Source of the DNA: a phage
NCBI GenBank assembly: GCA_012401045.1
Contig: GCA_012401045.1_4704.2
Reading direction: 5' to 3' (one strand)
DNA length: 64,000 nt
Made by a program: the position numbers and the translations under genes. Shown here piece by piece: positions 1,807 through 47,321 of this stretch (position 1 is the stretch's first letter; each line of letters starts with the position of its first letter). A model generated the notes under the pieces. It worked only from the letters and a program-made list of their open reading frames with translations. It ran no database searches and was not told where the DNA came from.

Positions 1807-1833
1807 GATCGGTCCTCCAAGGAGCCAGTGTAA

Positions 1834-4743: not shown

Positions 4744-4828
4744 ACGGATGTAAAAAAAATAACACATAGTTAACCTTCTCCCCAACCCGATGAGGGAAGG
4801 GGAGAAGGGCTATGCGCTATTTAATTTA

Positions 4829-5101: not shown

Positions 5102-5162
5102 ACGGTTTCCTTATCAACTAGGGTATTGCAAATACAATACCCACCGTCGGACGATAAGTTAA

Positions 5163-7721: not shown

Positions 7722-7755
7722 TTCTTACGATCCTTTTTATTTATTCGGTTATGTG

Positions 7756-11276: not shown

Positions 11277-11365
11277 TATCACGGTGCCGGATGAATGTCC
11301 GGTGCAATGAAACCATCCGCAACGTTGTCATCAAGAATATCATCCAACGAAGCAGCTACGGTAGT

Positions 11366-13588: not shown

Positions 13589-13737
13589 TGAAAGTATCCT
13601 TTACAGAATTAACTTATATAAGTCGGTCGATAGACCATAGCGTACACGCGTGCATGCGCCACTATAGTATCAGTAAACACTTACCGTTATTGAGGTCGTG
13701 ATACAACACTAAAAATGCCGCATAACTTTTCCCTACG

Positions 13738-14358
13738 TCATAAACGACGCAGGCGATAATGGATGGAACGATTGGTGCAATATGAACGGAACAGCGGCAA
13801 TTGCGCAACTTCCGCAAGACTCATATTAATTCGCAGGTGTTCAATAACGGCGCTGTAGTTATCAGCAATACGATCGCTCAATAACTCTTCTGCCAATAAA
13901 GGAAGACAATCGACAACAATCGCGATCACATCCTCATTAACATAACGCACCCGAACACTCAACGGACGTTTGTCTGGGCTGTAAGTTGGATCCGCCAAAC
14001 GACGTTCAATATCACGCGGATAGCTCGTCAGTAAATGGTAATAACCATTGTCATAACGATTGATGTACTCACACAGCACATCAACATTCTTCTCTGGCGG
14101 CAAACCTGTTTCGTCATAGTGATACGCAAACATACCACCAAGCAGGTTGTTAAGATGAACCGCAGGGTTCGCTTGTTCGTGTTCTTTCGTGATGAAGAAA
14201 GGCACATTTTGAGCTGCGAAATAAAAACCTACATCATTGGGCGATAGTATGCCGAAAAGACTTTTAGGGTCTAATAACACCTGTAAGTCATCACGCGCAT
14301 TTCGAATAATCGCGTGTTCTACCCAATTCGGAACGACGAGATATCGGAGTTCCTTCAT
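13738..14358 (-). CDS. hypothetical protein (206 aa)
   Basis: ORF track; AAAGAGG RBS. Confidence 0.8.
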   Translation of the reverse strand: MKELRYLVVPNWVEHAIIRNARDDLQVLLDPKSLFGILSPNDVGFYFAAQNVPFFITKEHEQANPAVHLNNLLGGMFAYHYDETGLPPEKNVDVLCEYINRYDNGYYHLLTSYPRDIERRLADPTYSPDKRPLSVRVRYVNEDVIAIVVDCLPLLAEELLSDRIADNYSAVIEHLRINMSLAEVAQLPLFRSYCTNRSIHYRLRRL

Positions 14359-14397
14359 TATGATTACCTCTTTGCAAGTATCGAAAGGATTGAGTCG

Positions 14398-24760: not shown

Positions 24761-27700
24761 TTACTTGTAGGCACCGCAATGGGCTTTGATGAGGAAAAGC
24801 ACCGCTTGCATCGGTTTATTGAACTGTTGCCATAACGTCAATGCCGGATGGAACAACCAATCTTCCAGGCCGAGAACAATACCGTAGTTAACGACATTAT
24901 TAACATCGTTCTCAACGTTGAGTTCGCTATCCAGGAATTTATCGATTGAACGCAGGGTCTGCATGGCGTTGTCAGCAATAAGCCAAGCTTCATGTGCTTC
25001 ACGAGCCGCACGCAGCACTGCCTCCAGTTCGCTGATAGTAGCTACCGGTAATTCCTCACTGGTGAGGTCGTCAGAAACCGTAAACTGGCGATTGATACCG
25101 GTGTAGATCCACTGCATCAGTTTCGCTGCTTCCTCGTTCGGGTTGTTACGCGTTGTCGCATAAGTCGCGCTCACCTTCACGATGTGCGTTTCACCAAGAT
25201 ACGCTTTGGACCCAACACCTTTACGATCGCTGTCTTTCCACGGTTGTACGGTAGCGACCATGAGCTTATCCCATTTCTGAATAGGAATACGCTTCAGACC
25301 AACAACCGATCCAGCGGATGTTTCGGACTGGTTGCTCTTCCGCACGTCGCTGAGCTCACGATCGATCGCAACGATTAATTCACGCGTCATGTTACCAAGC
25401 ATTTTGATTTCACCCAACGCAGCGATGAGCTTCTTCACATCGGTAACAGGTTCACCACCGATGGTAAGATGACGGATGAAACGTTTCAGAATAATCCGTT
25501 CTGCTGCTGGGTTACCGCGCCGCGCTTTGGCCAACGCTTGCTGTGTTTCGGCGAACAGCTTATCCCATGGAGCCGTAGCGGCGGTATAGTAACGATGGTT
25601 GGTTTCAATCCAGTTACCGATACGGTTGACCGCGGTCTTAACGGTATCCATGAATCCTTCCATCGCAATTTCGGTAGCTTCGACGTTACCCTGGAAGTTA
25701 TCAGGACCGATCTCGCGTGCCGCTACCAGAATACCTTCCACCGCGCTCACCGCGTGGCGACCGATAGCCAGATTTCGCTGCGCTTCTTCAGCACGCTCAA
25801 CGAATTCCACCACCGCAGGATCGTCAACGATTTCCACCTCAGCAACAACACGAGTACCAGCATCGCCTTCCAGTGTTTCGATGGTGACAACAGGATCGTT
25901 TTCACCAGCAACATCCTGGTATTCTTCCTGTTTGAGATCGCCGTTATCAGCCGCTGCGACAGCGGTGAGTATACGAATGGTAACATCGCCGAGTTCTTTT
26001 GCAGCGAATCCGTAAACGGTGCATGCGGTCGTTGCAAAGTTCATCAGGGTACGTGTGCGCTGCGTGACGTAGCGTGCGCCCGATTCGTTTTCCACTTTGT
26101 CTAGATCGCGGAGTAACTGCTCAGCCGTCTCCTGAAGTTGAGTAGCTGCTTTCAGGAGGTCTTCGTCAAACAGTTTTGTTGATGCATCGATCAGCATTTC
26201 AACGCTAACGTTGGGCGGTACAGCATCATCCTGCTGTTTCATGGCGCTAAGTTCGTAACGGAACTCACGAATGCCGTTTAACGCGTCGTCGATAGAATAT
26301 CCGAACGCTTTCACGCCCGCCATTCCAAGAGCTGCTTTCATTTCAGCTGGATGCTGAACTTGCTCGCCTTCCTTGCTGTTCTTTAACTCATCGAAATATT
26401 TCTTCGACGCGTCCGCAATACGTTTACTGTCTTTAACCGCATTTACGATCTTATCGACAGATTTCGAGTCGTTTGCGAGCAGCGTATCCAGTTTATTCCA
26501 CTCAACGTCAACCTTCTTGGTGTCGCTCGGCGGAGGAAGCAGTTTCATCACTGGTGCTGTGCGTTGTTCTTTGGTCAGCTTGTTGGCCTTCTCTTCGATT
26601 TTTTTCTTATTAACACCAAAGAGATTTTTCAAACGCGCCACGAGGGCTTTTAAGAACTTCGCGACCGCTTCGTAAACCGATTTCAGAATCTGTTTAAAGC
26701 GACCCGGCTGCTTTTCCCCGTCTTCCAGATTGAGATCGCTGTTCAGTGCGACATCAAGCTGTTTGTACGATTCCATGATGTATTCGTCTTTGATTTCAGG
26801 ACGAATCTCGAAGCTTTCCATCGGACCTTCAGCCGGACGGAATTCCATTTTCAGTTCGCCTTGCAGGGTAGGGTCGACAATGGCGATCGCTTCACCCTGA
26901 CCATCAGCGTTAAAGCGTTCAGCGTAACGAGTACGGCGAACAATAACACTCTTACCCCCGTCAAGACGACGTACCACCATGGTGCCAGGAATGTACGGTT
27001 GTTCTGTTTCAATGACGGTTACATCTGTTTCACCCTCACCGAGAATAACAGATGCACGCTGTTCAACAACAGGAACATCTAATACACCACGGGCTTCCAG
27101 CTCTTGATGAATTTCGAACGACTCTTGTTTCAGATCTTCATCTTCTTCGTTTTCGTCGTCTTCATCATCGCCACCTTTGGTGTTTTCATCACCCTTGGTG
27201 GTTGTGTCGTCGGTGGCACCAGCGTCAGCGTCGGTGTTAGCAGGTTCTTCGGACGCAGGTTCGGTGGTGTTGTCCTCCGTGGACGACCCGTCAGTGTTAT
27301 CGACATCAACATCACCTTGCAGTTCTGTTTCCTGAGCAACTGCTTCGGCTTTCTGCTCGCCGGTATTGCCGTCATTAGCGTCAACGACAGGTTGTTCGTC
27401 AGCGACGGTATCTTCAACCTTTTCTACTTTCTCCACGACACGTTTAATCACGGTGACTTTGATGGGTTCTTCCGTCGTTTTGGTTTCTGGCGTCGCCTCG
27501 GCTACCTCAGCTGCTGTTTCAGCAACAGGTTCTGCTTTTTCCGGTTCGACGACATTGCCTTTAACACCTTCGGTGGTTTCTGCAGGTTGCGTCGCCTGTT
27601 CGATTTGTGCCGGATTGGTTGGATCGATGGCGTTAGCCGCATCCTGAATCTTGTTCTTCAGGTTGTCGCGGTCAGCGTTAACGGTCGGGTCGTTGGTCAC

Positions 27701-28138
27701 TTTCGGTGCCGGTGTTTCGGTCGGTGCGTTTGCCGGATACGGGTTCTTCGGCTCTTCGCCAGGTGCGGTCGGTACCGCGATCAGAACGAACGGTTGAACA
27801 TCGTTACCGTCTTCCATGGTTACGCCACCGTTGCTCGGTGTGAAACGAATTCGTAAACTACCATCAATAGGACGGGTCACAATAACAGCACGTACGACAT
27901 CCTCACCGTTCTCATCCGTGCTACGAATCACACGAACAGCGTCATCAACGGTAGCCCCTTCCTCGAGCGTATCTGATTCGATCGTCGCTTCGATGCTGTC
28001 TGGCCGTGCCGCTGTAGGTAATGCGATCACTTGCTCTTCTTTATCAGTAGAAAGCGTTGCTTTGACTTCGATAGGTGTATCGCCGCTTTCCAGGTTAAGA
28101 TGCGACTTACGCATCAGATCAGCTAACGATTTTTTCAT
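24761..28138 (-). CDS. large virion-type protein (1125 aa) with acidic Thr/Glu/Asp-rich low-complexity segment; member of EGF-helix paralog family
   Basis: ORF track; AAGAGGAA RBS; motif EATEIAMEGFMDTVKTAVNRIGNWI shared with paralogs. Confidence 0.9.
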   Translation of the reverse strand: MKKSLADLMRKSHLNLESGDTPIEVKATLSTDKEEQVIALPTAARPDSIEATIESDTLEEGATVDDAVRVIRSTDENGEDVVRAVIVTRPIDGSLRIRFTPSNGGVTMEDGNDVQPFVLIAVPTAPGEEPKNPYPANAPTETPAPKVTNDPTVNADRDNLKNKIQDAANAIDPTNPAQIEQATQPAETTEGVKGNVVEPEKAEPVAETAAEVAEATPETKTTEEPIKVTVIKRVVEKVEKVEDTVADEQPVVDANDGNTGEQKAEAVAQETELQGDVDVDNTDGSSTEDNTTEPASEEPANTDADAGATDDTTTKGDENTKGGDDEDDENEEDEDLKQESFEIHQELEARGVLDVPVVEQRASVILGEGETDVTVIETEQPYIPGTMVVRRLDGGKSVIVRRTRYAERFNADGQGEAIAIVDPTLQGELKMEFRPAEGPMESFEIRPEIKDEYIMESYKQLDVALNSDLNLEDGEKQPGRFKQILKSVYEAVAKFLKALVARLKNLFGVNKKKIEEKANKLTKEQRTAPVMKLLPPPSDTKKVDVEWNKLDTLLANDSKSVDKIVNAVKDSKRIADASKKYFDELKNSKEGEQVQHPAEMKAALGMAGVKAFGYSIDDALNGIREFRYELSAMKQQDDAVPPNVSVEMLIDASTKLFDEDLLKAATQLQETAEQLLRDLDKVENESGARYVTQRTRTLMNFATTACTVYGFAAKELGDVTIRILTAVAAADNGDLKQEEYQDVAGENDPVVTIETLEGDAGTRVVAEVEIVDDPAVVEFVERAEEAQRNLAIGRHAVSAVEGILVAAREIGPDNFQGNVEATEIAMEGFMDTVKTAVNRIGNWIETNHRYYTAATAPWDKLFAETQQALAKARRGNPAAERIILKRFIRHLTIGGEPVTDVKKLIAALGEIKMLGNMTRELIVAIDRELSDVRKSNQSETSAGSVVGLKRIPIQKWDKLMVATVQPWKDSDRKGVGSKAYLGETHIVKVSATYATTRNNPNEEAAKLMQWIYTGINRQFTVSDDLTSEELPVATISELEAVLRAAREAHEAWLIADNAMQTLRSIDKFLDSELNVENDVNNVVNYGIVLGLEDWLFHPALTLWQQFNKPMQAVLFLIKAHCGAYK

Positions 28139-28153
28139 AAAGCGTTATTCCTC

Positions 28154-29260
28154 TTAAAAGTAATATTTCAGCGCCTCGCGAGAGACATCAAGCATAGCCG
28201 CTGTTGAATTCGTAAAGAACTCGGCATAGCCCACAAGCGGCACCTTGATCCACGCGGTATACGCTGTAAGGTATCGAGAAAGGGCTACCATAGCATCATC
28301 AGAAGCAGTAGTAACTGACAACTGACCTTGTTGACGATAAACGTCGTTAAGTTTTGCTTGTAGATTCCCTGCGATTTCGAGTAACTCGTTGGCGTACTTT
28401 TTACGATGGTAACTAACCAGTAAATCAACACCCGTATTTACCGACTCGAGTAGCACACCAACTTGTTCTAATGTTGGCATTGTAACCACCATATCCCGTT
28501 CAACGGACGGTACATCCTGGACTTCAAACCGTGCGGATTGAATAGCGAGGGACTGTTGAATTGAACCAGAACCTGAGGTGGTAACCTGATCGAGTCGTAG
28601 CGTACGGTTACCCAGTAACGTTACATTGACGAGTCTCGATTCGTTCAGCGTACTGTAGACTTTATGCAATAACGTATACGCGTCACGGTTAATCACATCG
28701 ATTAATGCGGTATCCGTCTGTTTTAAGATAATGTCGAGCGCTCTATCTAACGTATTAGCGAACTGTTTGAAATCATCACGGAACGACGAAGACAAGAGAT
28801 ATTCAGCGATTGCCAAATTCTGTTTGTATAACGTATTCCCAGTTGTGAAGTCGAATCCAAAACTGTTCCCATACCGTAGGTGCGGTGCCAGCGTTGACGA
28901 AGCTTCGAAGCTTTGCGCGATGGGTTTACGACCAACGGCTTTTGTGTAGTGACGGCGGATGTTGCTGAGTTCGAGCTGTAGTGCGCGACTACGATCGATA
29001 AACCGGGCGATAAACGCAGTGATGTTCCGCAACGTTGTCCAGATTGCATCGATGATGGCTTTGATGATTTTCATCGCAAGCTGATTGTACGATTCCATCG
29101 TGAGGAGATCAGCACTTTCCGTGGTATAACTGGTTGTCGGAATACCGCCCGCTTGCTGATAAATGAGCTGGTGAATTTGTCGTTGCGTTGCTGTCTCTGG
29201 CACAGGTAATTTTTTTAACAAGCTTAACGCTTGAATCTGTCCATCATAGGTCTGCAGCAT
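28154..29260 (-). CDS. paralogous virion protein family member (~368 aa)
   Basis: ORF track; start moved to ATG (MLQTYDG) after GAGGAAA; weak family motif. Confidence 0.8.
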   Translation of the reverse strand: MLQTYDGQIQALSLLKKLPVPETATQRQIHQLIYQQAGGIPTTSYTTESADLLTMESYNQLAMKIIKAIIDAIWTTLRNITAFIARFIDRSRALQLELSNIRRHYTKAVGRKPIAQSFEASSTLAPHLRYGNSFGFDFTTGNTLYKQNLAIAEYLLSSSFRDDFKQFANTLDRALDIILKQTDTALIDVINRDAYTLLHKVYSTLNESRLVNVTLLGNRTLRLDQVTTSGSGSIQQSLAIQSARFEVQDVPSVERDMVVTMPTLEQVGVLLESVNTGVDLLVSYHRKKYANELLEIAGNLQAKLNDVYRQQGQLSVTTASDDAMVALSRYLTAYTAWIKVPLVGYAEFFTNSTAAMLDVSREALKYYF

Positions 29261-30545
29261 TGCTGGTTTCCTCAAGTTCGAGATGCGCGTCAAGATAATC
29301 ATTAAGACCGTCGATGACGTCGCAGACAGTTAACAGGAATCGGGCAAAAGCAACCGCCTGGAAGCCGACGACGTTACGCGCGATACCCACACGTTGAACG
29401 ATAGCGGATGCGGCGGTATCGTTGTTGTCCATCTGTTGTAGCAGGCGCTCGTAAGGTTGAATCCATTCGTCCTGATCGGCAAGGCTTGCTTCAAGACAAC
29501 GTTTAAATTCCAACTGTCGTAGCGTAGACCATAACGTACTTAATGCGTTGATGATCGCGTTGGTTCCGTCGATAACATCGTTTAACGGCAAGAAACGGAA
29601 TCCGTCTTTTGCTGATTGGAAAGGTACGGCTTCCCACACAACGCTGAATTGCGTTCCTGTTGCGTCTTCGATGTTGTGTAATTTAAGATAGGAAGCACCA
29701 ACAGGTACGTCAACGACTAGATCGTCTGTTCCGGTAGGCGTTAACGGCTTCTCGCATAACGCATCGTTGATGACTTCAAGGATATTCTCCCAACAGGCTT
29801 CGTTTTCTGCAGCGATACCTTCTTTGTTATCCGCTGATGGTGCTTTTAGTAGCCGCATTAATAACGGATCGAGTTGACGATGCCACGCTGCGAGGATTCC
29901 TGTGTTCGTTACGATGTTTTCTGCGGTTTGTCGTAAATCAGCAATACTGCTTACCGCACCGCCTTTCGGATGAAGATAACGCCAGTTGTAGGGAAAGTTC
30001 TCCCAGAACGCGTTATCTTCATCGACGTCGTATTCGGAAATATTTTTCAACGCAACCGCTTTCTTTAATAACGGCTTCACCTGACGAACGAATCGACGAT
30101 AACAACGATTACAGATATCGATCGCGTAACGGTATAACTCGTTCATGTAAAGCCATAACGCTCGGGTTGCTTCTTTTGCGGTCTTGTCAAAACTTTCCAT
30201 GTTCAAGCTCATCCCGCTGGAAGTTTCCTCTTCCAGACCCTCGATGATTTGGTTTGGGTCCATCCCCATCCCGGCTGCTGCGGTTGTTGCGATATGTTTG
30301 ATGGTGTTAATATCGCGTTCTTCAACTTCAGCCATGTTTGGGACAATATCCAGCCTGAGTTTATTTAATGTTTGAAGGTGTTGTTCACCTTCTTTCATCA
30401 CCGTGTTTGTTTCGTCGATTGAGTGAAACTGATTCTCAATATTACTGGCATCGAGAACGTTGCCAGCGATACCGAACGATTCTACAGGTTCATCATCAAT
30501 CCCTTGAAATAACGATGTCATGGGTTGTTGTAACACGTTTTCCAT
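29244..30545 (-). CDS. paralogous virion protein family member (433 aa)
   Basis: ORF track; AGGAG RBS; contains one copy of the 25-nt repeat. Confidence 0.85.
   Translation of the reverse strand: MENVLQQPMTSLFQGIDDEPVESFGIAGNVLDASNIENQFHSIDETNTVMKEGEQHLQTLNKLRLDIVPNMAEVEERDINTIKHIATTAAAGMGMDPNQIIEGLEEETSSGMSLNMESFDKTAKEATRALWLYMNELYRYAIDICNRCYRRFVRQVKPLLKKAVALKNISEYDVDEDNAFWENFPYNWRYLHPKGGAVSSIADLRQTAENIVTNTGILAAWHRQLDPLLMRLLKAPSADNKEGIAAENEACWENILEVINDALCEKPLTPTGTDDLVVDVPVGASYLKLHNIEDATGTQFSVVWEAVPFQSAKDGFRFLPLNDVIDGTNAIINALSTLWSTLRQLEFKRCLEASLADQDEWIQPYERLLQQMDNNDTAASAIVQRVGIARNVVGFQAVAFARFLLTVCDVIDGLNDYLDAHLELEETSNAADL
30368..30392 (+). repeat. 25-nt exact repeat copy 1 (ATGTTTGAAGGTGTTGTTCACCTTC), inside CDS 29244-30545
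   Basis: Identical 25-mer at 51691-51715; contains 7-bp inverted repeat GAAGGTG/CACCTTC. Confidence 0.8.
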
Positions 30546-30645
30546 TTGGGACTCCTACGTAGGAAAATCTTGGCGGGTGATCATGTCCGCCATTTACCTT
30601 CTGAACCGTTGATTCAGAAGTCAAAAGATAACCGGATACCAACGC

Positions 30646-30689
30646 CATAAACCTTCCTCCAACCCAACAGGGAAGGAGGAAGGGATATG
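30646..30689 (-). terminator. GC-rich extended stem-loop, family member e
   Basis: CATAAA-CCTTCCTCC-AA-CCC-AACA-GGG-AA-GGAGGAAGG-GATATG. Confidence 0.5.
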
Positions 30690-30693
30690 GTGA

Positions 30694-31983
30694 TTATGCT
30701 TTTTCGGTCGCTGCGTTGAAGTATTTCGCAGCAGCAAATACAGCATCCGCATATTGACGTATCGAAGCGCGAAGAATCTTGGTTGACAATACTGTACTTA
30801 AACGTGCCATTTCAGAAACCGCGCTTACATAAGGACGGATGGTTTCACGATCGGCTTCAGGCAGCTTGTCAAGCATATCACCCCACTTCGTTTTGATTTT
30901 CATGCCGTTGAGTTTAGCGGTACGCTCCACAGAACCAGCCAAAGCTTCAACCATGTGGAAATAAGAGGAGTCTATCGTACGGAACACGTTAAGATAGGAA
31001 GTCAATGCACCTTTCAGTTCGTTATCGTCTTTGAAAATGTTTGCGTTCTCTATCTCACCGGTCGCCGTCGTCTCGGTTTCAACCCGAATATTTTTCACCA
31101 ACGTGTAGGCTTTAATCGCATCACGTTCGTTTTCAACAGCATCGAGACCTTGAATAACGAAACGTTTCCCACCGCTCTCTGGAAAAACAACTTTATTCAG
31201 AGCCGATTTGATCGCAAGCAGGTATTTGTCTAAGATAGACGGAAGCAGTGTGAGGTCAGTGAGGTCTGCGACCTTTTTATTGATATCAGCCACTTGCTTA
31301 AACAATGAATCCACCCCGCTTGCGCTTGCAGCGAGTTGTTCGATATGCTTGCTTGCAAACACGGCATTCGCTGATTTCGCATTAGGGAACATATTGACCA
31401 TATTTCCAGTGGGCTTATCCAACTGTTTGATATGGCGCTCACCTTTATTCACAGCGGTTGCGATGTTGACAATTTTGTTGTATGCGACAACCAGGTTCTT
31501 GAACAACATCTGGAACAGTTTGAACAGCTGCTCAGCGATATTCGCAATGATTACCCAGACCGCATATAACGCTTGTGCTGCGCGTTCTTTAAAACCTTCC
31601 AGTACAATAGCTTGCCCTTCCACCAAACGATCGTCGGCTTGGAACATGTCTTCATCGGACATCCCCAGGTTAGCTGCTGACGTCGAAGCAATCTGACGGA
31701 TAAGTGCGATGTCGCTGGCGCGAGCTTCAGGGATCGTAGGTGCGATCATGTACGCGGTATCTTCCAGCGTTGCTGAGGTACGCACCGCAATTTCAGCCAG
31801 TTCGCTGGATTCATCGATCGTCTCGTCGGTACGTCGAATCACCAACTCAACTTCGTCCTCTTCGATTTCTGCGTTAGGATCGTGTTGCTCCGCTGGAATT
31901 GCTGCAAGAAGATCTTCGGCGCTGAGCAATGCGAGTTCGAATGCGTTTTTATTGACGTTATCAAAAAGAGAAATACGTGCCAT
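30694..31983 (-). CDS. paralogous virion protein family member (429 aa)
   Basis: ORF track; AAGGAA RBS; motif VLEGFKERAAQALYAVWVIIANIAEQLF. Confidence 0.85.
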   Translation of the reverse strand: MARISLFDNVNKNAFELALLSAEDLLAAIPAEQHDPNAEIEEDEVELVIRRTDETIDESSELAEIAVRTSATLEDTAYMIAPTIPEARASDIALIRQIASTSAANLGMSDEDMFQADDRLVEGQAIVLEGFKERAAQALYAVWVIIANIAEQLFKLFQMLFKNLVVAYNKIVNIATAVNKGERHIKQLDKPTGNMVNMFPNAKSANAVFASKHIEQLAASASGVDSLFKQVADINKKVADLTDLTLLPSILDKYLLAIKSALNKVVFPESGGKRFVIQGLDAVENERDAIKAYTLVKNIRVETETTATGEIENANIFKDDNELKGALTSYLNVFRTIDSSYFHMVEALAGSVERTAKLNGMKIKTKWGDMLDKLPEADRETIRPYVSAVSEMARLSTVLSTKILRASIRQYADAVFAAAKYFNAATEKA

Positions 31984-31992
31984 GTTAGTTCC

Positions 31993-33309
31993 TTAACCTT
32001 TGGTATAAGCTTTAACGAGAGTGTTGATAAATGAAGTCAGTGCGCGAAGATATTGGTAAGCGAACTGGTTTTCAATACGGTTCTCTTTACCGCAAAGCAG
32101 AATCGCACGCTTAACGAGCTTAGGGTAGATCTCAACGTACGGTTGGTAGCTTGCATCAAAATTCTGCTCGTTGAAGCGTTTCATGGTGATTTCCTGGATG
32201 CGCTCCATGGTGCGAATTTTATTGCGAGAGAACATCTCAGAGAAAGCGCGTCCGCGTTTTGTTACCATCAACAGATCTTTCGCGAACGTCAGTTGTCGAA
32301 CGTTACGCAAATCGTCCGGTGTCGGCAGGACGTACGTTTCCGGGTCACTATCCCATTCAACATCTTCAACGACAATATCCAAGTCGAGGTAACGTTTAAC
32401 CGCATCGATGATATTGTCTTTTGACGCATCGAATTCTTTCAAGAAGACCGCGCCGTTGATGTAGCGGATGCGTTTTCCGGAAACCGTTGGGGTGATAACG
32501 TCAGTACCTTCCACGGAACCGCGATTTTCCAGCGTCGATTTGACAGCGTTCAAGAAAGTCAGATAATCAACGGGAAGTTTTTCAACCTTATCTAAATGGA
32601 AGTCGACGATGCTTAATCCTAACCCATCAATAACTGAATAGCCGTCTGATTTAAGGAACATCTGATTGAAGGTATCGATGTTGCTTTTCAGCGCGTCTAC
32701 GCCACCAACGTTGTTACGGTTAGGGAAAAGTGTCCGCCACTCCGCTTTAAACGCAACTTCTTTATTTTCCTCGTATTTGCCTTTAGGCATTTGTTCGAGG
32801 TCTGCAACGGCTTTCTGAAAATTGCGCGTCTCGTCGTAAACAAGACGGGTAAGCTTCTCGAAGGCTGCTGCCAAGGTCAGGGCAATATCAACGATGATAT
32901 CCCAGATCTTTTTCATGGCTTTTACAACGGTGTCCTTAAACCCTTCAATAACCAAAGCTTCTCCAACCTCAACACGATCGGTTGGCGTCAGCAATGCTTC
33001 GGAGGGTAGACCCAGAGCAATCGATGCGGATTCTTGCACGTTACGAACTAATGCAACGTCACTGTAGTTAGCCGATTCGATAGTCGGAGCAACATCAAAA
33101 CTGATTTCCCGCAGTGCAGCAACAGCAGGGAAAGCACGATCAAGTGCGTCTTCATGTTCGTCGATTGTCGCCAAACGCAATTCAACACCATCGGCATCGA
33201 TGACATCGGCTGTAGGCTCCACGGCAAGCGCCTCAGCAACAATAGGATCTTTTTCAAACGCCTCAAGGCTGATATCGCCTTGGGTCGCAAATAGCGGTAT
33301 GTGTACCAT
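31993..33309 (-). CDS. paralogous virion protein family member (~438 aa)
   Basis: ORF track; start moved to ATG (MVHIP) after GGAGA; motif VIEGFKDTVVKAMKKIWDIIVDIALTL. Confidence 0.85.
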   Translation of the reverse strand: MVHIPLFATQGDISLEAFEKDPIVAEALAVEPTADVIDADGVELRLATIDEHEDALDRAFPAVAALREISFDVAPTIESANYSDVALVRNVQESASIALGLPSEALLTPTDRVEVGEALVIEGFKDTVVKAMKKIWDIIVDIALTLAAAFEKLTRLVYDETRNFQKAVADLEQMPKGKYEENKEVAFKAEWRTLFPNRNNVGGVDALKSNIDTFNQMFLKSDGYSVIDGLGLSIVDFHLDKVEKLPVDYLTFLNAVKSTLENRGSVEGTDVITPTVSGKRIRYINGAVFLKEFDASKDNIIDAVKRYLDLDIVVEDVEWDSDPETYVLPTPDDLRNVRQLTFAKDLLMVTKRGRAFSEMFSRNKIRTMERIQEITMKRFNEQNFDASYQPYVEIYPKLVKRAILLCGKENRIENQFAYQYLRALTSFINTLVKAYTKG

Positions 33310-33350
33310 GTGTTGTCTCCAGTAATGATTCAAAAGATAAACCTGAGCGG

Positions 33351-33395
33351 CATAGAACCCTCTCCCAACCCGTCAGGGAAGGGAGAGGGGATATG
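33351..33395 (-). terminator. GC-rich extended stem-loop, family member f
   Basis: CATAGAA-CCCTCTCCC-AA-CCC-GTCA-GGG-AA-GGGAGAGGG-GATATG; only ~45 nt upstream of the next start codon. Confidence 0.5.
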
Positions 33396-33411
33396 TCAGT
33401 TTATTAACTGA

Positions 33412-34734
33412 TTACTGCTGTGCTGCGTCAGCCGGTTTCTCAGCCGCCTGGCCGCCGTACTCTTTCAGCATTTTAGCAACGCCATCCAGGACAGCGTTAC
33501 CTGCCTGAACACCGTATTTCATCAGACCAGTCTGCGGGTTCACGTAGCAGGAACGTGCGTCTTTCAGTGCAGACAGTACAGCTTGAACACGCTGTTTTTC
33601 CTGAGCGGAAACTTCGCCTTTCTTAGACAGATCGGCTTCCATATCGTCACCGAATTTAACAGCGTCTTTGAAGCCCTGGGATTTCTTACCGATGTTGCCT
33701 TTCAGCGCCAGCAGTTTGTCAGCCAGTACTTCAACACCGCTAACCGCAGCAGCCAGCTGATTCAGGGACAGGACGGTAGCTTCAACTTCTTTTGCTTCGC
33801 CAGAGCGTTCCCAGGTTACTTTACCATCGTTGGCTTTGAAACCCCAGCCCGCAGGACCAGCAACGTCGGCAATCGCCGGAGCGTTCAGTTTATCAGCGTA
33901 CTCGGTGTGAGATTTAGCGACAACGGTACCAACGAATTTATCAGCACGATCGTCAGCAGCCTTCATTGCTTTCTCGAAGGTGTCAGCGATTTTGGTCGCG
34001 CCGGTAACCAGATCATCACCACCGATGTAACCAGAAACGCCGCTACCCAGCTTAACTTTGGTATTTTTAGCAACGCCTTTACGCTTGCCGATCATTTCTT
34101 TCAGTTTAGCAGCACGTGCTTTCAGTTTGGTCGCGCCGTCGAAGATGCGATCCATGAACTTCACGAAGGTTTCCCAGGAAGTTTTCAGGAAGTTCTTGAT
34201 GGTTGCCCACAGTTTCTGCCACCATTTTTGTTCTTCCAGGAAGATCATGTTGGTTGCATCGTAGCGGGAAGCGGAACCACCGAAGCTTTCGAAGGACGGC
34301 ATGGTTTCCGGCAGTTTGAAACCGATAGTACCACACAGACGTTTCAGATTACGCATGTGTTCCTGAGCGGTCTGTGCAGACATACCGCCGTCTTTCAGGT
34401 AGCTTTCGGTTGCAACAACGGTTTCCGTCAGTTCATCCATGGCTTCGTCCATGGCTTCTGCGGTTTCGTCGTCTTTTGCAATTTCGATAACAACAGCATC
34501 AACCTGCTCGATATCACCACGAACTTCGATAGCCAGTTCGGTTTCAGCTGCGGTATCTTCAGCGATTTCAGCACGTTCGGTCAGTTCAGCCACAACGGTT
34601 TCATCCGCTGGTGCAGCATCAGCTGCCGGTTCTGCTTCAACGGTTGCCGCTGCATCCGGGTCGATCTCAGCAGCCAGTTGAACCAGCTGTGCGTTAGATG
34701 GATTTGCGACAAGACGATCAAAAATAGAAGGCAT
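33412..34734 (-). CDS. abundant paralogous virion protein (440 aa) with acidic Ala/Glu-rich N-terminal region
   Basis: ORF track; AAAGGAAA RBS; strong highly-expressed codon bias. Confidence 0.9.
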   Translation of the reverse strand: MPSIFDRLVANPSNAQLVQLAAEIDPDAAATVEAEPAADAAPADETVVAELTERAEIAEDTAAETELAIEVRGDIEQVDAVVIEIAKDDETAEAMDEAMDELTETVVATESYLKDGGMSAQTAQEHMRNLKRLCGTIGFKLPETMPSFESFGGSASRYDATNMIFLEEQKWWQKLWATIKNFLKTSWETFVKFMDRIFDGATKLKARAAKLKEMIGKRKGVAKNTKVKLGSGVSGYIGGDDLVTGATKIADTFEKAMKAADDRADKFVGTVVAKSHTEYADKLNAPAIADVAGPAGWGFKANDGKVTWERSGEAKEVEATVLSLNQLAAAVSGVEVLADKLLALKGNIGKKSQGFKDAVKFGDDMEADLSKKGEVSAQEKQRVQAVLSALKDARSCYVNPQTGLMKYGVQAGNAVLDGVAKMLKEYGGQAAEKPADAAQQ

Positions 34735-34798
34735 AATTTGTTTCCTTTACAATAAATTGCACATTAGCTAATGCGGCTTAAGTGAACCGTCAGCTCAC

Positions 34799-41673: not shown

Positions 41674-44466
41674 TTATCTTACGTTATTGCTGTTCTGCTG
41701 TTCGCTGAACCAACTGTACACCTTGAGATCGGTACCGTATTTCAATGCGATATACGCATTCAGCGCAGCACAGAACAAAGACGCGAATGCCCATATCAGC
41801 GAAGGATCAACATCTTCCGTTACCACCTGGAGAGTATTATCCGGTTCCCATGATGGAGAACTGTCCATGAACGTCGTGTACCATTCCCGCCGTTGTTCTT
41901 CGGTGGTAAAGTCGCTATGAGGTTCCAACGCTTCTTTTGCCAGACGTCGATATTCGAACATATGCGTTGCTAAAGCCGACGAGTTACCAGATTCGCCTTC
42001 ATAGTTCGGATCCACCGCATAACAGAGTTCTGTTGAATCCAACAAAGCAATCGCTTGTGTGATGCTGTCGGCAGTGCCTGCACCATAAAGCTCGATAGAC
42101 CGCGAAAGCTTTTCACAGAACGCATTTAACGCGGAAGGATTGGACACCTGAAGGTCAAGGCCTAATGTCCACGGATAGTTACTGAATACGCCCGTAAACC
42201 GCGGCATAACACCCAACAGATGTTGTCCGATTACAGCACGGTTATAAACAGCCCGGTTATAGACTTGAAACGCAGCCTCCAAAGCTTGGTTATAATGACG
42301 ACGAAGTTCGTCACGCGAGTTGCGGAATCTGTTTGCCGCAAGACTTGTGGCTGCGACGCTACAAACATCGTAATTGGTGGACGAGAGCACAGTTTCGTTA
42401 AGATCGAACGATTCCTGTTTCAACGATCCGCTAACCGCTGCTGCTTCGCTGTTTGCTTTATCGACAACAGTACTCAAAGCGTTGATGTAACGTTTAGCTC
42501 GGACTTCCAGCCATTGTGCGATACCGAGAATATCCACCGCGGCTTTAGCAAGATCGCGTGCATTCACGATTTCGTTCTTCAACGCCCCTAAACCTTTATT
42601 TTCAGGCAATGAGGCTTGTTGACGAATCATGCTGTTCAACATGGTAAGCAGATTATCCAACTCATGTCCACTGACCTTGTTACGTGCATCGGTAATAGGA
42701 CCTTGCAGGAATTTACGGCAACCATCGTTGTATCGAATCAGTTTATCCACATCGATAGATTCGTTCGTGGATTCCTTGAACTGATTCTTCAATTCTTCAC
42801 GGTAGTCATGGATTTCACTTGCGAGATTATCGATAGTGATACCATCATATCCAAGAAGAACTTTATTGAAGTTACCTTTCTCGAATGCAAGAGCAAGACC
42901 TTCACGAATCTTAGCGAGTTTGTCCTGATCAAGTTCACGACCGTTCGATAGCTCTTTCACTTCCGAGCTGATTAATGCCGAAACGTTACCCAGATTGTCG
43001 GTAACTCCTTTGAACGCTCCCGACCAGATCGTTCCTGCTTCAGCGTATTTCGCAATGGTCTGAATACCGACGGTATGCAACGACGCTAAACGTTTCTTCG
43101 TGCCTTCGGTAAGCAGTGCGTCTTTAGCTCGCGTAAGTTGACTGTTATTAGCTTCCGCTTGCTGGATTGCTGCTTTCGCACTTCCATTACGCCAGCTCTT
43201 AACTAACCAATCAACCAAACGTTTTAGGATGTTGACGGTGTATTCCATTGTCCGCCGTAACGTTTCCCACGCGCTTTCTGCGGTATAAATGCCGTACCCT
43301 TCCATCTTCGTTGGGTCAAAGAAACCTTCCTGCACGAGATCAGTACGTGTGTAGCCATCAGCAGCTTCTACTTCCGCCTGGGTTTTATCCCAGAAGTCGT
43401 CGCTCTTTGCAGCAATCGCTGTATCTTTAACGTCCAGGATGATCTGACCAACCGTTTGTGCAAACAGCAAGGCCGCACGTACCGATTGTGCGAACATCCG
43501 CTGATATTTGATTCGAACGCATTGCATCTGGGTTAGCAGATTCAGTTGTGCGATCCCATCCAAGGTGCTATCCTGAGCAAGCCCTTCGGCTTTAGTGATA
43601 ACCTGTTTTACACGTTCAGCGACATCACCGTACTGCTGGCAAACATCTCGCAGAATACGTGCCGCGAAGACCCCGGTACCGATATAGTTCAATAGGTCTT
43701 TTAACGACCATTCGGTCGGACAATCGGTCGGCGCAATAGGGAGTAAGCAACCATCACCGTCCATGAATCTCTCTAATGCGCTAATATCCTGATTTTCTAC
43801 GCTCATGGGGATATCGACATCAGCCGCTTGCAGATCCAGCATCTGTTGTAGGATGTTGGTATCGGCTTGTACAAGCGTCACAAGCGCTTGGCTGTGTGCG
43901 ATTATTGGTAACGCAGGTGACCATACTGCAGCAAGCTTGTCGGCGTGACGTTGAATGGCATACCCCATATCCTCGATCACATCGGGATGCTCGATAACCC
44001 CCTGAAGCGTTTGATGTAGCTCACCGAGTTGCTGAGACAGATCGACCATCATGGTGTTGAAGGTTTCACCATCCTCTTTGTGGTTGTCCAGACGCTCGAG
44101 TTCATGTCGAAGCAATGTAACGAGCTGTCCGTTGCCTTCTTGCTTCAGCTTGCTTTCCATTAACGTAATGGCTTTATCGACGATCTGACACGCTTCACGA
44201 AAACCGGTTGTGGAAGGAAGCTCTGTCCATAACGCCAACGGTTTACCGTCAAGGGCTTCCGGCATCGATAAAGAAAGCATAGACAGTTGTTGACGTGATA
44301 CTTGCTGTTCACGGTGTAATGTTTCTTTTAACGCCAGGAGATCGTCAAGAAACGCGCCGTTAAGGGTGGTCGTACGCGGTGTTGAATTAATACCGTCAGT
44401 TAACGATTCAAGCACCAGGAGACCGTTATCAGCTGAAGAGAGTCCCGCGGCAAGATATTTGTTCAT
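41674..44466 (-). CDS. large virion-type protein (~930 aa); family-like EGF helix motif
   Basis: ORF track; start moved to ATG (MNKYLAAG) after GGAG; motif DLVQEGFFD...WETLRRTMEYTVNILKRLVDWL. Confidence 0.9.
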   Translation of the reverse strand: MNKYLAAGLSSADNGLLVLESLTDGINSTPRTTTLNGAFLDDLLALKETLHREQQVSRQQLSMLSLSMPEALDGKPLALWTELPSTTGFREACQIVDKAITLMESKLKQEGNGQLVTLLRHELERLDNHKEDGETFNTMMVDLSQQLGELHQTLQGVIEHPDVIEDMGYAIQRHADKLAAVWSPALPIIAHSQALVTLVQADTNILQQMLDLQAADVDIPMSVENQDISALERFMDGDGCLLPIAPTDCPTEWSLKDLLNYIGTGVFAARILRDVCQQYGDVAERVKQVITKAEGLAQDSTLDGIAQLNLLTQMQCVRIKYQRMFAQSVRAALLFAQTVGQIILDVKDTAIAAKSDDFWDKTQAEVEAADGYTRTDLVQEGFFDPTKMEGYGIYTAESAWETLRRTMEYTVNILKRLVDWLVKSWRNGSAKAAIQQAEANNSQLTRAKDALLTEGTKKRLASLHTVGIQTIAKYAEAGTIWSGAFKGVTDNLGNVSALISSEVKELSNGRELDQDKLAKIREGLALAFEKGNFNKVLLGYDGITIDNLASEIHDYREELKNQFKESTNESIDVDKLIRYNDGCRKFLQGPITDARNKVSGHELDNLLTMLNSMIRQQASLPENKGLGALKNEIVNARDLAKAAVDILGIAQWLEVRAKRYINALSTVVDKANSEAAAVSGSLKQESFDLNETVLSSTNYDVCSVAATSLAANRFRNSRDELRRHYNQALEAAFQVYNRAVYNRAVIGQHLLGVMPRFTGVFSNYPWTLGLDLQVSNPSALNAFCEKLSRSIELYGAGTADSITQAIALLDSTELCYAVDPNYEGESGNSSALATHMFEYRRLAKEALEPHSDFTTEEQRREWYTTFMDSSPSWEPDNTLQVVTEDVDPSLIWAFASLFCAALNAYIALKYGTDLKVYSWFSEQQNSNNVR

Positions 44467-44525: not shown

Positions 44526-47321
44526 TTAAGCTAATTTACCGAAACCGGCTTTCTGCAGTTTCTCGTTGATGATTTTCGCTTCAGCGAAGACGTAATCACG
44601 ATACGCAGTGACTAATCCGTCCACCCGTGAACGCAAGGCTTCTTCGAAGCTATACCACGCAGCGATTTCACGAATCTGTGCGTTGATATAATCAACGGTT
44701 GAGCGAAGCTCGGTTGCGTTTTCTTGCGGAATGGCTTTCACCTGGCGAGCAACGTCATTTAAACGACGGAACTGTGTTTCGATTTCTTTAAACTTACTGT
44801 CGGCAAGTTTGCTGAATTCGTCACCAGAACGGGTAAATAACAGATAGCTGTTGCCGTCAAGTGCGGTCGCTAACTGCTGAAGTACGTTGGTGTCCGGATA
44901 CACAGGAGTACCGCTTTGCAGTACTTTCTCACCGAATTCCGCGAAGTCCTTCGGTGGTAAGTGTGCAGACGTTGTCAATTCGTTGAAACGGAAAGTCAGC
45001 GAATTATCATACAGCATCCGGTACGCTTCCATACCCTGTTTCATGGTACCGGCCAGGTTAGCCAGACGCGGAGCAATCTCGCCTTCTTTAGCGCGTTTCT
45101 GGTCTTCTAACGCCCCTTCGAGTTCTTTACACTGGTCGTTCAGATACACGATACGATCAGGACGTAGACGACGCATCTCACGAAGAATAGTATCCAGCTT
45201 ACCTTCCTGGAAATAACCCAACGTTAAAGACGTACACGCTTGCTGAAGACGATCGAACACCGGTAAGGTTACCATCTCCTTACGGATACCATCAACAATC
45301 GCAGAAACAGCCGAAAGTTTCTGTTCTGTAGTCAATGGAACATCAGAGGCCGACTTGCTGGGTGCACCAACAACGTTACGCATTGCGTCGGTATCCTCGG
45401 TTTTATCAACCTCTTTACGAACATGCTCATCAGGAACATAAACGTTCGCGTTACGTTTCGCCTGCTTGATGGCGTCGTTGGCCGCTTTTTCGGTGGCTGC
45501 TACGCTATCAGCACGTTTCTTCAAGAGTTCAATAATCCAGAGCAACAGACGACGAATCGCAGTATAGGCCGTCGTGATGATGACACCGATAACAGCCATC
45601 TTCATGATACCGAACGATTCCATGGTCGGCTCTAACGCTTGGTCTGGCATATACCGTTCACGCAGCTCCAGATAGATCTGCTCATCTGGTTTGCTGACCT
45701 CACCACGATGCGAAGTACGATAGATGGCTTCGTCAATCTCAACAAGATCTTTGCGGGCCTGGCGATCGGATTCTGTTAAGTAAGCACAACCGGATACGTC
45801 GTCTTCGAAGCTTAAGAATTTGAAAAAGTCACTGACGTCGATCTTGATCTTCTTCGCTTCATTATCGACATCGATAACATCTTTTTTCTGTGCCTGATAT
45901 TCCGCTTTGATGTCGTTCACCGGCTTCAACGCACGTTCTTTTAATGCCTGCACGATCTGTTTCCAGTCGGCGTCACGCTCAAGAACAAGGAAGTAATTCT
46001 TGAGTTCAAAAGCACGGTAACGCGCAACGAGTTGTTCTACCTGAATATGAGCGAGTTGCACATCCATCAGCCAACGCGACATTGCTGAGATCAAACGGCT
46101 ATAAGCAAGCAATGTCTGATATGTTAGCTTCATGTGCTTTTCGTACAGCTCAATATCGCCGTCTTGAATATCAGCCGTTGGGTTCATTTCCTTCGTTGCT
46201 TTGAAGATCTGTTCGGCCTCATTTAACGTTTGTTCGAATTTGACTTCATTAAACGTGTCAAACGGTTCAGCCAACTCCATCATTCGATCGTGAAGCTCAC
46301 GAACCCAGGCTTCCTTATTGTTGCGAATAGCTGCGTCATCGTGAAGTTCAGTTTGATGTTTCTGTACCCATTCTTCGACGATATCAGCGGCGGCAACAAT
46401 TCCTGTACCATCGGAAACTAACGGAACAACTCCAGCAAGTACGCCTACACACGCCGGGGTTTTCCAATAATCGTTCAAAGCGTTTCTGAATTCAACGATG
46501 GATTGTACGTTTGGTACCGTATCCAAAAACGTACTGCCGTTACGGCTCATTGTCGTTACGATATCAGCGAATTCCTTCTGCTTAGCGGTAACAAAAGGAA
46601 CCAGGACCATAAGCCATTCAGCAACCGACTTCGCTTTCTCTTTCAGATTTTTGTCAGCGATTTCCTTAAGGTTTATCGCACCACCGTAACCTGCAAGCTC
46701 TTTATATACGTCGCTAAGGGTCATCTGTTTATCCAACATTTCTTTGAAACGTGGGTAATCAGCACCTAACGCATCGACAATATCGTTGATTACGTCATCA
46801 GTTGTTGCGATAAACTTCTTCGTATCAACGTTTGAATATTTCCAGACGTATCGTACTGCTTTCTTGATTCCTGCAAAGATAAACGCCCAGATACGCTTGA
46901 TGAGTTCCCAGACTTTCTTCGCGCCATCGACAAACAGTTTAGAGACCTTGGCAACGAATCCTTCCTGCACCAATTCAACGCCGTTACGTGATGGGATTTC
47001 CGTGAAGAAAGCATCCGGCAGTTGTTTCGGGAATGCGTCACCAAGACGCATACGCAGTTCCGGTACATCAGCACGAGAAATACCGCGTGTTACTAATTGT
47101 TCGTGAAGACGAACGTTTTCTTCACCAGAGGTCACGAATTCGTCAACATCGAAGGAGACCATTGTTTCCTGATCTTCGGTGGTAACGACGCTTGAACCAT
47201 CACTGGTTTGGATGTCTTCGTCAGGGAATGCCATGAGCATACCGTGACGCATTTCAACCACCCCGTAATCGGTTGCTAAACCGAATTCGTTGTGGTCTGG
47301 GGTAATAACTGGGATACTCAT
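44526..47321 (-). CDS. large virion-type protein (931 aa); N-terminal region homologous to paralog family
   Basis: ORF track; AAGGAG RBS; motif ELVQEGFVAKVSKLFVDGAKKVWELIKRIWAFIF. Confidence 0.9.
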   Translation of the reverse strand: MSIPVITPDHNEFGLATDYGVVEMRHGMLMAFPDEDIQTSDGSSVVTTEDQETMVSFDVDEFVTSGEENVRLHEQLVTRGISRADVPELRMRLGDAFPKQLPDAFFTEIPSRNGVELVQEGFVAKVSKLFVDGAKKVWELIKRIWAFIFAGIKKAVRYVWKYSNVDTKKFIATTDDVINDIVDALGADYPRFKEMLDKQMTLSDVYKELAGYGGAINLKEIADKNLKEKAKSVAEWLMVLVPFVTAKQKEFADIVTTMSRNGSTFLDTVPNVQSIVEFRNALNDYWKTPACVGVLAGVVPLVSDGTGIVAAADIVEEWVQKHQTELHDDAAIRNNKEAWVRELHDRMMELAEPFDTFNEVKFEQTLNEAEQIFKATKEMNPTADIQDGDIELYEKHMKLTYQTLLAYSRLISAMSRWLMDVQLAHIQVEQLVARYRAFELKNYFLVLERDADWKQIVQALKERALKPVNDIKAEYQAQKKDVIDVDNEAKKIKIDVSDFFKFLSFEDDVSGCAYLTESDRQARKDLVEIDEAIYRTSHRGEVSKPDEQIYLELRERYMPDQALEPTMESFGIMKMAVIGVIITTAYTAIRRLLLWIIELLKKRADSVAATEKAANDAIKQAKRNANVYVPDEHVRKEVDKTEDTDAMRNVVGAPSKSASDVPLTTEQKLSAVSAIVDGIRKEMVTLPVFDRLQQACTSLTLGYFQEGKLDTILREMRRLRPDRIVYLNDQCKELEGALEDQKRAKEGEIAPRLANLAGTMKQGMEAYRMLYDNSLTFRFNELTTSAHLPPKDFAEFGEKVLQSGTPVYPDTNVLQQLATALDGNSYLLFTRSGDEFSKLADSKFKEIETQFRRLNDVARQVKAIPQENATELRSTVDYINAQIREIAAWYSFEEALRSRVDGLVTAYRDYVFAEAKIINEKLQKAGFGKLA

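Follow-up and report, generated by a model that had tools for sequence, protein, structure and literature searches.

A tandem array of probable PF12699-type internal head proteins in a Goslar-like jumbo phage, and a candidate maturation junction that recurs in neighbouring head proteins

We analysed a 64,000-nucleotide stretch of phage DNA (contig GCA_012401045.1_4704.2 of GenBank assembly GCA_012401045.1; hereafter the window), concentrating on five tandem genes between positions 28154 and 34734 and on three giant genes that a first-pass annotation had grouped with them. Bases 28154–34734 matched Escherichia phage vB_EcoM_Goslar with 94% nucleotide identity over 97% of the query, and the window is, at the sequence level, a relative of this nucleus-forming E. 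coli jumbo phage (Chimalliviridae). The five tandem genes were recovered as same-strand open reading frames (ORFs), as were the three giant ORFs; all eight genes lie on the minus strand. Window ORFs were assigned to Goslar genes by position, and the GenBank label of every Goslar counterpart is hypothetical. The genes discussed below are the following.

24761–28138, minus strand: gp53 orthologue, 1125 aa, beginning with a long acidic region; closes the array as its largest gene, as gp97 does in phiKZ
28154–29260, minus strand: gp54 orthologue, 368 aa from the Goslar start; the ORF runs to 29302 (382 aa)
29244–30545, minus strand: gp55 orthologue, 433 aa
30694–31983, minus strand: gp56 orthologue, 429 aa
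31993–33309, minus strand: gp57 orthologue, 438 aa from the ATG; the ORF runs to 33333 (446 aa)
33412–34734, minus strand: gp58 orthologue, 440 aa; the dominant internal and ejected protein
41674–44466, minus strand: gp64 orthologue, 930 aa; the ORF runs to 44523 (949 aa); an all-alpha virion protein from a near-orphan family
44526–47321, minus strand: gp65 orthologue, 931 aa; vertex-binding-complex protein, homologue of phiKZ gp86
47791–49101, minus strand: gp67 orthologue, 436 aa; homologue of SPN3US gp45 and phiKZ gp84

In an all-versus-all BLASTP comparison with composition correction, significant similarity was confined to gp55, gp56 and gp57 (E 1e-7 to 3.5e-20): gp55 matched gp56 and gp57 at E 1e-7 and 5e-8, and gp56 matched gp57 at E 3.5e-20. 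The best E values for gp54, gp58 and the giants were about 0.02–1, at one short stretch. Full-length hidden Markov models (HMMs) of the gp55/gp56/gp57 triad, with or without gp54 or gp58, did not recover the other paralogues, or the giants beyond the conserved junction described below (best E 0.24). Profile searches linked the array to PF12699 (phiKZ_IP, 'phiKZ-like phage internal head proteins'), for which the curated Pfam cutoff is 27 bits: gp58 scored 77.3 bits (E 1.7e-21) over profile positions 6–385 and was the sole array member above the cutoff, gp54 (21.6 bits, E 1.4e-4, profile positions 89–384) and gp57 (21.9 bits, E 1.2e-4) fell below it, and gp53, gp55 and gp56 gave no Pfam hit. The PHROG category 'internal head protein' was matched by gp58 (phrog_5750, E 6e-10) and gp54 (phrog_12254, E 0.008), and weakly by gp53, as a whole protein and with both of its segments (E 0.0012, 0.0098 and 0.0055). 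Furthermore, BLASTP paired gp53 with phiKZ gp96 (E 0.004) across the junction at aa 813–908, and gp53 probably carries two internal-head-protein-like helical modules, at aa 457–827 and 828–1125. On sequence alone, gp55, gp56 and gp57 are demonstrably paralogous, gp58 is a bona fide member of the PF12699 family, and gp54 is a probable one. The proposal that all five tandem proteins are paralogues was borne out by BLASTP for the triad and by Pfam for gp58, but gp54 and gp58 showed no significant pairwise similarity; both are tied to the array by their PF12699 scores, their position, and a six-way MAFFT alignment (gp54–gp58 plus the gp53 C-terminus) in which the single invariant column is the junction Glu.

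Gene order places the array in the same setting as in related phages. It adjoins homologues of phiKZ gp89/90/91 and SPN3US gp50/51/52 (genes at 36268, 35326 and 34799; BLASTP E 1e-31 to 8e-5) and is syntenic with phiKZ gp92–97 and SPN3US gp53/54, an order also kept in a distant clade of related sequences; further neighbour homology in the region involves SPN3US gp45 and phiKZ gp84, which gp67 matches by BLASTP at E 3e-23 and 9e-23. Published work on Goslar reports that gp53 and gp58 carry PF12699, that AlphaFold 3 predicts the same fold for gp54–gp57, and that the region is syntenic with phiKZ gp92–97; LC-MS/MS of virions gave about 330, 70, 50, 60, 50 and 2150 copies of gp53 to gp58 (Basu et al., bioRxiv 10.64898/2026.04.21.720040). 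All six proteins are therefore present in Goslar virions, as expected of the virion proteins they had been taken for, and gp58-sfGFP was found to be injected and to stay with the early-infection (EPI) vesicle (PMC10541120).

Our own structure predictions were of low confidence. The AlphaFold 2 model of gp54, built from a six-sequence alignment of window paralogues, had a pLDDT of 49.5 and supported only all-alpha secondary structure, and a Foldseek search of this low-confidence model against BFVD returned no match at E ≤ 0.001; the gp64 model (six sequences, including a clade of 27% identity) reached a pLDDT of 37.5. The PDB held no solved structure for gp53, gp58 or gp64. Weak tape-measure PHROG hits, the tape-measure-like helices that Foldseek returned for the poor gp54 model, and the lack of significance of gp54 and gp58 by BLASTP or small local HMMs would fit a reading in which the five-gene similarity is an artefact of helical low-complexity sequence, the proteins being unrelated or tail tape-measure-like. 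That reading is highly improbable: it is effectively refuted by composition-corrected BLASTP in the triad (E 3e-20), the gp58 match to PF12699 (77 bits over the full profile), the array order kept in phiKZ, SPN3US and the distant clade, and the published Goslar work, which treats gp53–gp58 as capsid-packaged PF12699 proteins with gp58 injected.

We then investigated the conserved amphipathic block that had been described in all eight proteins. The tripeptide E[GS][FY] occurs 17 times in them, compared with 2.47 occurrences expected from composition, and 0 of 20,000 shuffles reached 17; in the remaining 44 window ORFs together there are 11, close to the sum of the per-ORF expectations from composition. 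In all eight proteins there is one such site (in gp65, two) with a Trp no more than 30 residues further on, in a strongly amphipathic helix. When 206 six-frame ORFs were ranked with an HMM built from only the five tandem proteins, the giants gp65, gp64 and gp53 came directly after the training set (E 3.4e-4, 4.3e-3 and 0.032), with noise beginning at E 0.65. These results indicate that the block is real and non-random. Its reported location at the N-termini of the giants was incorrect, since most copies are internal: at residue 827 of gp53 (also 339, 441 and 456), at 399, 408 and 704 of the 949-aa gp64 ORF, and at 120 and 568 of gp65. The sites, with ↓ marking the predicted or mapped cut, are as follows.

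25568–25672, minus strand: gp53 junction EIAME827↓GFMDTVKTAVNRIGNW, located by hhalign and the block HMM
26681–27136, minus strand: further gp53 E↓S[FY] sites E339, E441 and E456
29003–29107, minus strand: gp54 junction LLTME↓SYNQLAMKIIKAIIDAIW (TME70↓SY), with no acidic propeptide
30105–30209, minus strand: gp55 junction SLNME117↓SFDKTAKEATRALW, with an extra PVE22↓SF site
31507–31611, minus strand: gp56 junction AIVLE129↓GFKERAAQALYAVW, matching the mapped SPN3US gp53 cut AQE125↓GWKE
32854–32958, minus strand: gp57 junction ALVIE130↓GFKDTVVKAMKKIW, numbered from the 446-aa ORF
34150–34419, minus strand: gp58 candidate sites ATE110↓SY, SFE149↓SF and FLE167/E168, the last just before the W-helix
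42322–42426, minus strand: gp64 junction KQE↓SF
43210–43341, minus strand: gp64 junctions VQE↓GF and KME↓GY
45528–45632, minus strand: gp65 second junction EPTME568↓SF, followed by a hydrophobic helix
46872–46976, minus strand: gp65 first junction ELVQE120↓GF...KKVWELIKRIW
48964–49068, minus strand: gp67 short propeptide cut LTME16↓AIKFQDG

The N-terminal parts upstream of the junction are acidic in four of the five tandem proteins and in gp65 (net charge −16 to −26; gp58, −26), but not in gp54 (+1), so that the acidic N-terminal region described for the array holds with this exception. The putative propeptides are acidic and the mature parts neutral to basic, with the amphipathic helix directly after the site. 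AxE/SxE sites had been proposed as the processing motif of the acidic regions; a motif search found them no more frequent than composition predicts, with observed [ASG]xE counts close to expectation in every protein. P3 is Ala or Ser in only 3/16 E[GS][FY] junctions, P2 is often Met or Gln, and P1'-P2' is [GSA]-[FY]. The relevant signature is x-[M/Q/aliphatic]-E↓[G/S/A]-[F/Y], not AxE/SxE.

The junctions were compared with cleavage sites mapped in related phages. SPN3US cuts have been mapped by mass spectrometry (PMC10052503, Table 2) and include AQE125↓GWKETLKDLF in gp53, AQE124↓SY and ARE137↓SLWDDIKAFLQRIFDWL (ARE137↓SLW) in gp54, and ALE111↓SWANAGKVGLVVLIM…GW (ALE111↓SW) in gp47; gp45 is cut at ASE20↓SIGFQD. 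Cuts are mapped at SQE-122 in phiKZ gp86 and at SQE-113 in 201phi2-1 gp148 (PMC5694885). [quoted passage not shown] Window junctions of the same kind as the SPN3US cuts are VLE129↓GFKE (gp56), VIE130↓GFKD (gp57), TME70↓SY (gp54) and VQE120↓GF (gp65). In MAFFT alignments, phiKZ gp86 SQE↓, SPN3US gp47 ALE111↓ and window gp65 VQE120↓ share one column, and SPN3US gp45 ASE20↓ aligns with LTME↓AIKFQD of gp67. The best cross-family hhalign alignments all fall on the junction, pairing gp53 (aa 814–897, on the SPN3US gp53/54 junction at 112–199) and gp64 each with SPN3US gp53/54, gp54 with the second gp65 junction, and gp57 with gp65; with the thin alignments used, cross-family probabilities were at most 32%. 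The block is most likely the site at which a head-maturation protease removes the acidic N-terminal part.

Cleavage sites of Goslar were not analysed in Basu et al., PMC10541120, PMC11297242 or PMC12676376, and we looked for semi-specific peptides in the published Goslar virion peptide table of Basu et al., covering the rows of peptides beginning with A to about EI; the new N-termini expected at the gp53–gp58 and gp65 junctions begin with G or S. Both sites found in this way had been predicted before the look-up. The gp64 peptide ANSEAAAVSGTLKQE (−10lgP 108, stronger than its tryptic form) ends exactly at a gp64 junction, which reads KQE↓SF in the window and KQE↓AF in Goslar, and the gp67 peptide AIKFQDGSLFKEMTEFFR starts exactly after TME, at TME↓AIK; non-tryptic C-termini are rare in the table (2/66 rows in one part). 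Two cleavages, in gp64 and in gp67, are thus directly supported, with P3 = K and T. [quoted passage not shown]

Peptide areas showed the same polarity in three proteins. For gp58, areas were 230–9,180 upstream of the junction versus 78,900 in the mature region, with peptides preceding E149 10–300x weaker; for gp64, upstream peptides were absent or at 2,420–8,390 versus 224,000 and 41,000 downstream; and for gp65, 451 upstream versus 14,400 downstream. The gp65 chain of PDB 36za (55 copies) begins with KKVWELIKRIW, 14 residues after E120. From these data and the alignments, we infer cleavage at the individual junctions of gp53–gp58 and gp65. The same W-helix, as the first ordered gp65 element in the capsid structure and so with a structural role, could also be cited for a different view, in which the block serves structure or targeting, for example as a helix cap, as an oligomerisation motif or as a signal for binding to capsid or scaffold, and the real cuts lie at [ASG]xE in the acidic regions. 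Such sites are present in every acidic region, P3 is seldom A, S or G at the junctions, and peptides spanning gp53 E456 and E827 were detected. Against this stand the absence of [ASG]xE enrichment, the column-for-column match of the junctions to mapped SPN3US and phiKZ cuts, the two junction-type cuts directly seen, and a turnover of sites in gp64 (see below) that is typical of a linear motif, not of a packed element; we regard this view as unlikely.

The giants proved to be of different kinds. gp65 corresponds over its full length (phmmer) to the chain 'gp65' of PDB 11fg/11mk, and is modelled with 55 chains in 36za. In Goslar it belongs to the vertex binding complex and is a structural homologue of phiKZ gp86 (Basu et al.); sequence similarity to phiKZ gp86 is not significant (E 0.33), the homology coming from the published structure, and the gp65 C-terminal domain shows no similarity to phiKZ gp28. 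Searches with whole gp64 and gp65 and with their post-junction segments, read up to E 1, matched neither PF12699 nor an internal-head-protein PHROG, whereas the N-terminal ~100 aa of the two proteins are homologous to each other (BLASTP 8e-4; hhalign 4.8e-4). As far as these comparisons reach, gp64 and gp65 are outside the internal-head-protein family and share with it the processing junction, and with each other the N-terminal homology. The inclusion of the three giants in one paralogous family thus applies to gp53, but not to gp65, a gp86 homologue, or to gp64, for which no family was detectable.

Some observations on the two proteins stand apart from this assignment. In neither phiKZ nor SPN3US is there a counterpart of gp64 in the interval from the gp86 to the gp87 homologue. 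Goslar virions contain about 110 copies of gp64, which Basu et al. give without discussion; this is similar in magnitude to the number of gp65 copies modelled, 55 (label-free quantification estimate ~76). The helix after the second gp65 junction (aa 564–598, SFGIMKMAVIGVIITTAYTAIRRLLLW) is hydrophobic enough to resemble a transmembrane segment, and resembles the segment after ALE-111 in SPN3US gp47, where a transmembrane helix has been noted in the literature.

Conservation of the junctions was followed in close and distant relatives. gp64 had only 4 representatives among 1.84 billion clustered proteins, one of them from a clade about 27–30% identical; a word-indexed protein search recovered this distant clade with four members, and its contig (L007) has the same gene order. 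The other word-indexed protein searches returned only near-identical Goslar-like sequences, and tblastn against cultured phages found gp56, gp64 and gp65 only in Goslar. The distant clade keeps junctions at orthologous positions in surrounding sequence that is 20–49% identical: IAE119↓SF and SME568↓GF in its gp65-like protein, TTE102↓SY and SFE141↓SF in the gp58-like, VLE139↓GFKE in the gp57-like, and AME96↓GF, ALE429↓SF and KAE738↓SF in the gp64-like protein. In 120 Goslar-like variants the motifs are essentially invariant (gp57 E↓GFKD is so in all 120 orthologues), while P1' of the third gp64 site alternates between Ala and Ser. The first gp64 junction has turned over, the distant clade having ALE↓SFW where the window has DDFW, and a 22-residue insertion in the window gp64 bears VQE↓GF and KME↓GY. 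gp64 resembles its distant-clade homologue most strongly in the part that begins with the first junction. An additional site, at 506, is present in Goslar gp65.

These patterns bear on how the block came to be shared. In one possible account, which we hold to be plausible without favouring it, the block is a short linear protease motif that unrelated head proteins acquired or kept independently of one another, and only the tandem genes are true paralogues. Cross-family similarity is confined to ~45–85 residues around the junction (E 1e-3 to 1e-2), the gp64 and gp65 segments lack any PF12699 or internal-head-protein signal, junctions move within a single family, as in the gp64 turnover, and their number varies between close relatives (the Ser/Ala P1' of the third gp64 site; the extra Goslar gp65 site). 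However, the amphipathic helix and Trp after the site are also common, which goes beyond a three-residue motif; the gp64 and gp65 N-termini are homologous; and the phiKZ PF12699 protein gp162 is integrated in the same vertex complex as gp86 (PMC11297242).

Our preferred interpretation, to which we assign a probability of roughly 0.85, is that the region is the internal-head ('inner body' or ejection) operon of a Goslar-like chimallivirus, with six PF12699-type paralogues made as precursors that are cut at the junctions. The phiKZ-like, protease-processed inner-body or ejection character proposed for the array is supported by the PF12699 match of gp58, by synteny, and by the published fold, virion and injection data for Goslar. 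Under this interpretation, each protein would be made as a precursor in which a mostly acidic N-terminal part and a helix-rich domain are joined by the junction, x-[M/Q/L/I/V]-Glu↓[Gly/Ser]-[Phe/Tyr], after which comes an amphipathic helix with a conserved Trp. The precursors would be incorporated into the prohead and cut after Glu by the prohead protease, presumably an S80-family homologue of phiKZ gp175 and SPN3US gp245 whose gene would lie outside the annotated part of the window. The helix-rich domains would be kept in the capsid with the DNA, gp58 in thousands of copies and the others in tens to hundreds, and at least gp58 would be ejected into the host with the genome and stay with the early-infection vesicle. 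The N-terminal pieces may be degraded, or kept on the capsid wall as in phiKZ gp93 and gp162; these roles of propeptides and mature domains we infer. The same junction would be used in gp65, in its partial paralogue gp64 and, in simpler form, in gp67. With two to four junctions in each, the giants are probably cut into several fragments.

Several findings weigh against this interpretation. No ordered inner body was seen in Goslar capsids (Basu et al.). Peptides spanning gp53 E456 (area 17,600) and E827 (area 541) are present, and these sites are therefore at best partly cut; N-terminal gp53 peptides are fairly abundant (79,000), and the N-terminal part of this protein is therefore not simply discarded. 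The gp58 maturation site is ambiguous in the alignment (E149 versus E167/168), only 3/16 junctions have a small residue at P3, as the proteases of phiKZ and SPN3US require, and the likely MCP site, GCE150↓S, has no [FY]. Furthermore, the sequence evidence for family membership of gp54 is sub-threshold, and our own structure predictions were of low confidence (pLDDT 37.5 and 49.5).

Two further observations on processing can be added. The Goslar gp53 peptide EIRPEIKDEYIMESYK (window 26780–26830) starts after Phe443, two residues past the PME441↓SF junction; its non-tryptic N-terminus fits neither trypsin nor a clean post-Glu cut, and could reflect trimming or a second activity. The MCP orthologue (11366–13588, minus strand) has 740 aa. 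Residues 1–157 are missing from the published Goslar MCP structure (Basu et al.), and the nearest Glu sites are GCE150↓S, E152 and E153, which lack the aromatic P2' of the internal proteins, with SME38↓SA further upstream.

The closest known counterpart is the phiKZ set gp92–97 (with gp162 and gp163), likewise a six-gene tandem array downstream of the gp89/90/91 homologues and ending in its largest gene. The phiKZ inner-body proteins also have a helix-rich PF12699 domain behind an N-terminal region separated by the prohead protease, and are high-copy, capsid-internal proteins of which several are injected; several phiKZ PF12699 paralogues tolerate transposon insertions (PMC12676376). In contrast, sequence identity between the two sets is about zero, with only gp58 passing the Pfam cutoff, and the phiKZ junctions mostly lack E↓[GS][FY], only gp97 having TSLE532↓SF, the cuts there following S/A/G-x-E. 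The Goslar type has one dominant member, gp58, and no ordered inner body, whereas in phiKZ several members reach 100–200 copies.

SPN3US gp53/gp54 and the further substrates of its protease gp245 (gp45, gp47 and gp50) resemble the window in synteny and in propeptide length (125 and 137 aa, compared with 117–149 here). The cuts AQE125↓GWKE, AQE124↓SY, ARE137↓SLW and ALE111↓SW resemble the window junctions, and gp45 ASE20↓SI aligns with gp67 TME↓AI. SPN3US differs in having two paralogues rather than six and no gp64 equivalent; moreover, Ala at P3 is a requirement of the SPN3US protease, whereas the junctions here mostly have a residue other than A, S or G in that position and frequently carry Met or Gln at P2, and an aromatic P2', near-invariant here, is only occasional there. 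For gp65, VQE120 aligns with the SQE-122, SQE-113 and ALE-111 cuts of phiKZ gp86, 201phi2-1 gp148 and SPN3US gp47; unlike phiKZ gp86, gp65 is twice as long, has TME568↓SF and a hydrophobic helix before an extra domain in place of phiKZ gp28, and has a partial paralogue, gp64, inserted next to it.

A more remote parallel is offered by the T4 internal proteins IPI–III with their capsid-targeting sequence, which are capsid-internal, are injected with the DNA, and derive from precursors cut after Glu by gp21; their propeptides, of 10–19 residues, are themselves the targeting signal. The fold of IPI–III is unrelated, and T4 has no PF12699 domain or tandem six-gene family of this kind. The gp21 protease is related to the protease family considered here (PMC5694885).

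Most junctions have a P3 residue other than A, S or G, and the two supported cuts have K and T there, which points to a shifted specificity in this lineage and not to an absence of processing. Extending this by analogy, we put forward a speculative and rather improbable scenario in which the Goslar lineage has re-tuned its prohead protease code, and cleavage in at least nine head proteins exposes new N-termini starting with an amphipathic or even hydrophobic helix. Once ejected, such helices could be membrane-active and might contribute to forming or anchoring the lipid EPI vesicle into which the genome is delivered. The re-tuned code, equally conjectural, would be Glu at P1, Gly, Ser or Ala at P1', an aromatic residue at P2', and Met or Gln favoured at P2. 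Helices unmasked in this manner would have analogues in adenovirus protein VI and the nodavirus gamma peptide. As a corollary of such re-tuning, processed gp64 may account for the unassigned, PF12699-like helical density that lies beside gp65 in the Goslar structure (EMD-75663; Basu et al.).

The family and these orthologues have already been described, and no new family is reported here. The additions are modest: the block as a maturation junction, its use in gp65, gp64 and gp67, the apparent shift in signature, and the finding that gp64 and gp65 are partial paralogues. Much of the protein that chimallivirus heads contain along with the DNA consists of PF12699 proteins, which are injected into the cell and whose function is an acknowledged open question (Basu et al.). 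The present work provides a testable map of probable precursor cuts, with a recognition signature that differs from the phiKZ and SPN3US rule; this map should be useful for virion proteomics, for the interpretation of cryo-EM density, for tagging or truncating injected proteins, and for studies of protease specificity.

Minor features of the window were also recorded. The post-junction domain of gp56 (30694–31600) is 70.7% identical to Goslar, compared with 99.2% for its propeptide and 95–99% for neighbouring genes, and gp65 shows a similar but weaker pattern (84% versus 96%); for gp56, this suggests a mosaic produced by recombination, or fast evolution, of the mature domain. A GC-rich hairpin at 30571–30592, in the 148-bp gap between gp56 and gp55, lies where Goslar annotates a putative terminator and would divide the array into two transcription units; a promoter and terminator scan found nothing else. 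On the plus strand inside the head-gene region, positions 14314–16008 encode a divergent DnaB-like ATPase (PF20307, E 1.6e-120), and phiKZ also has a DnaB-like helicase near gp119 and gp120. Two stop-free antisense ORFs, at 11291–13591 (plus strand, 766 aa) opposite the MCP gene and at 33583–34755 (plus strand, 390 aa) opposite gp58, almost certainly do not encode proteins and only mirror the genes that lie opposite.

Near-identical Goslar-like sequences, numbering in the hundreds, were found on contigs of ~235–245 kb in bacterial assemblies labelled Salmonella enterica, E. coli, Shigella flexneri and Enterobacter hormaechei, and one E. coli record holds a 100% match to the window gp64. Such contigs occur in many isolate assemblies, and a Goslar-type phage therefore often accompanies isolates that are sequenced, either in a carrier state or as a contaminant.

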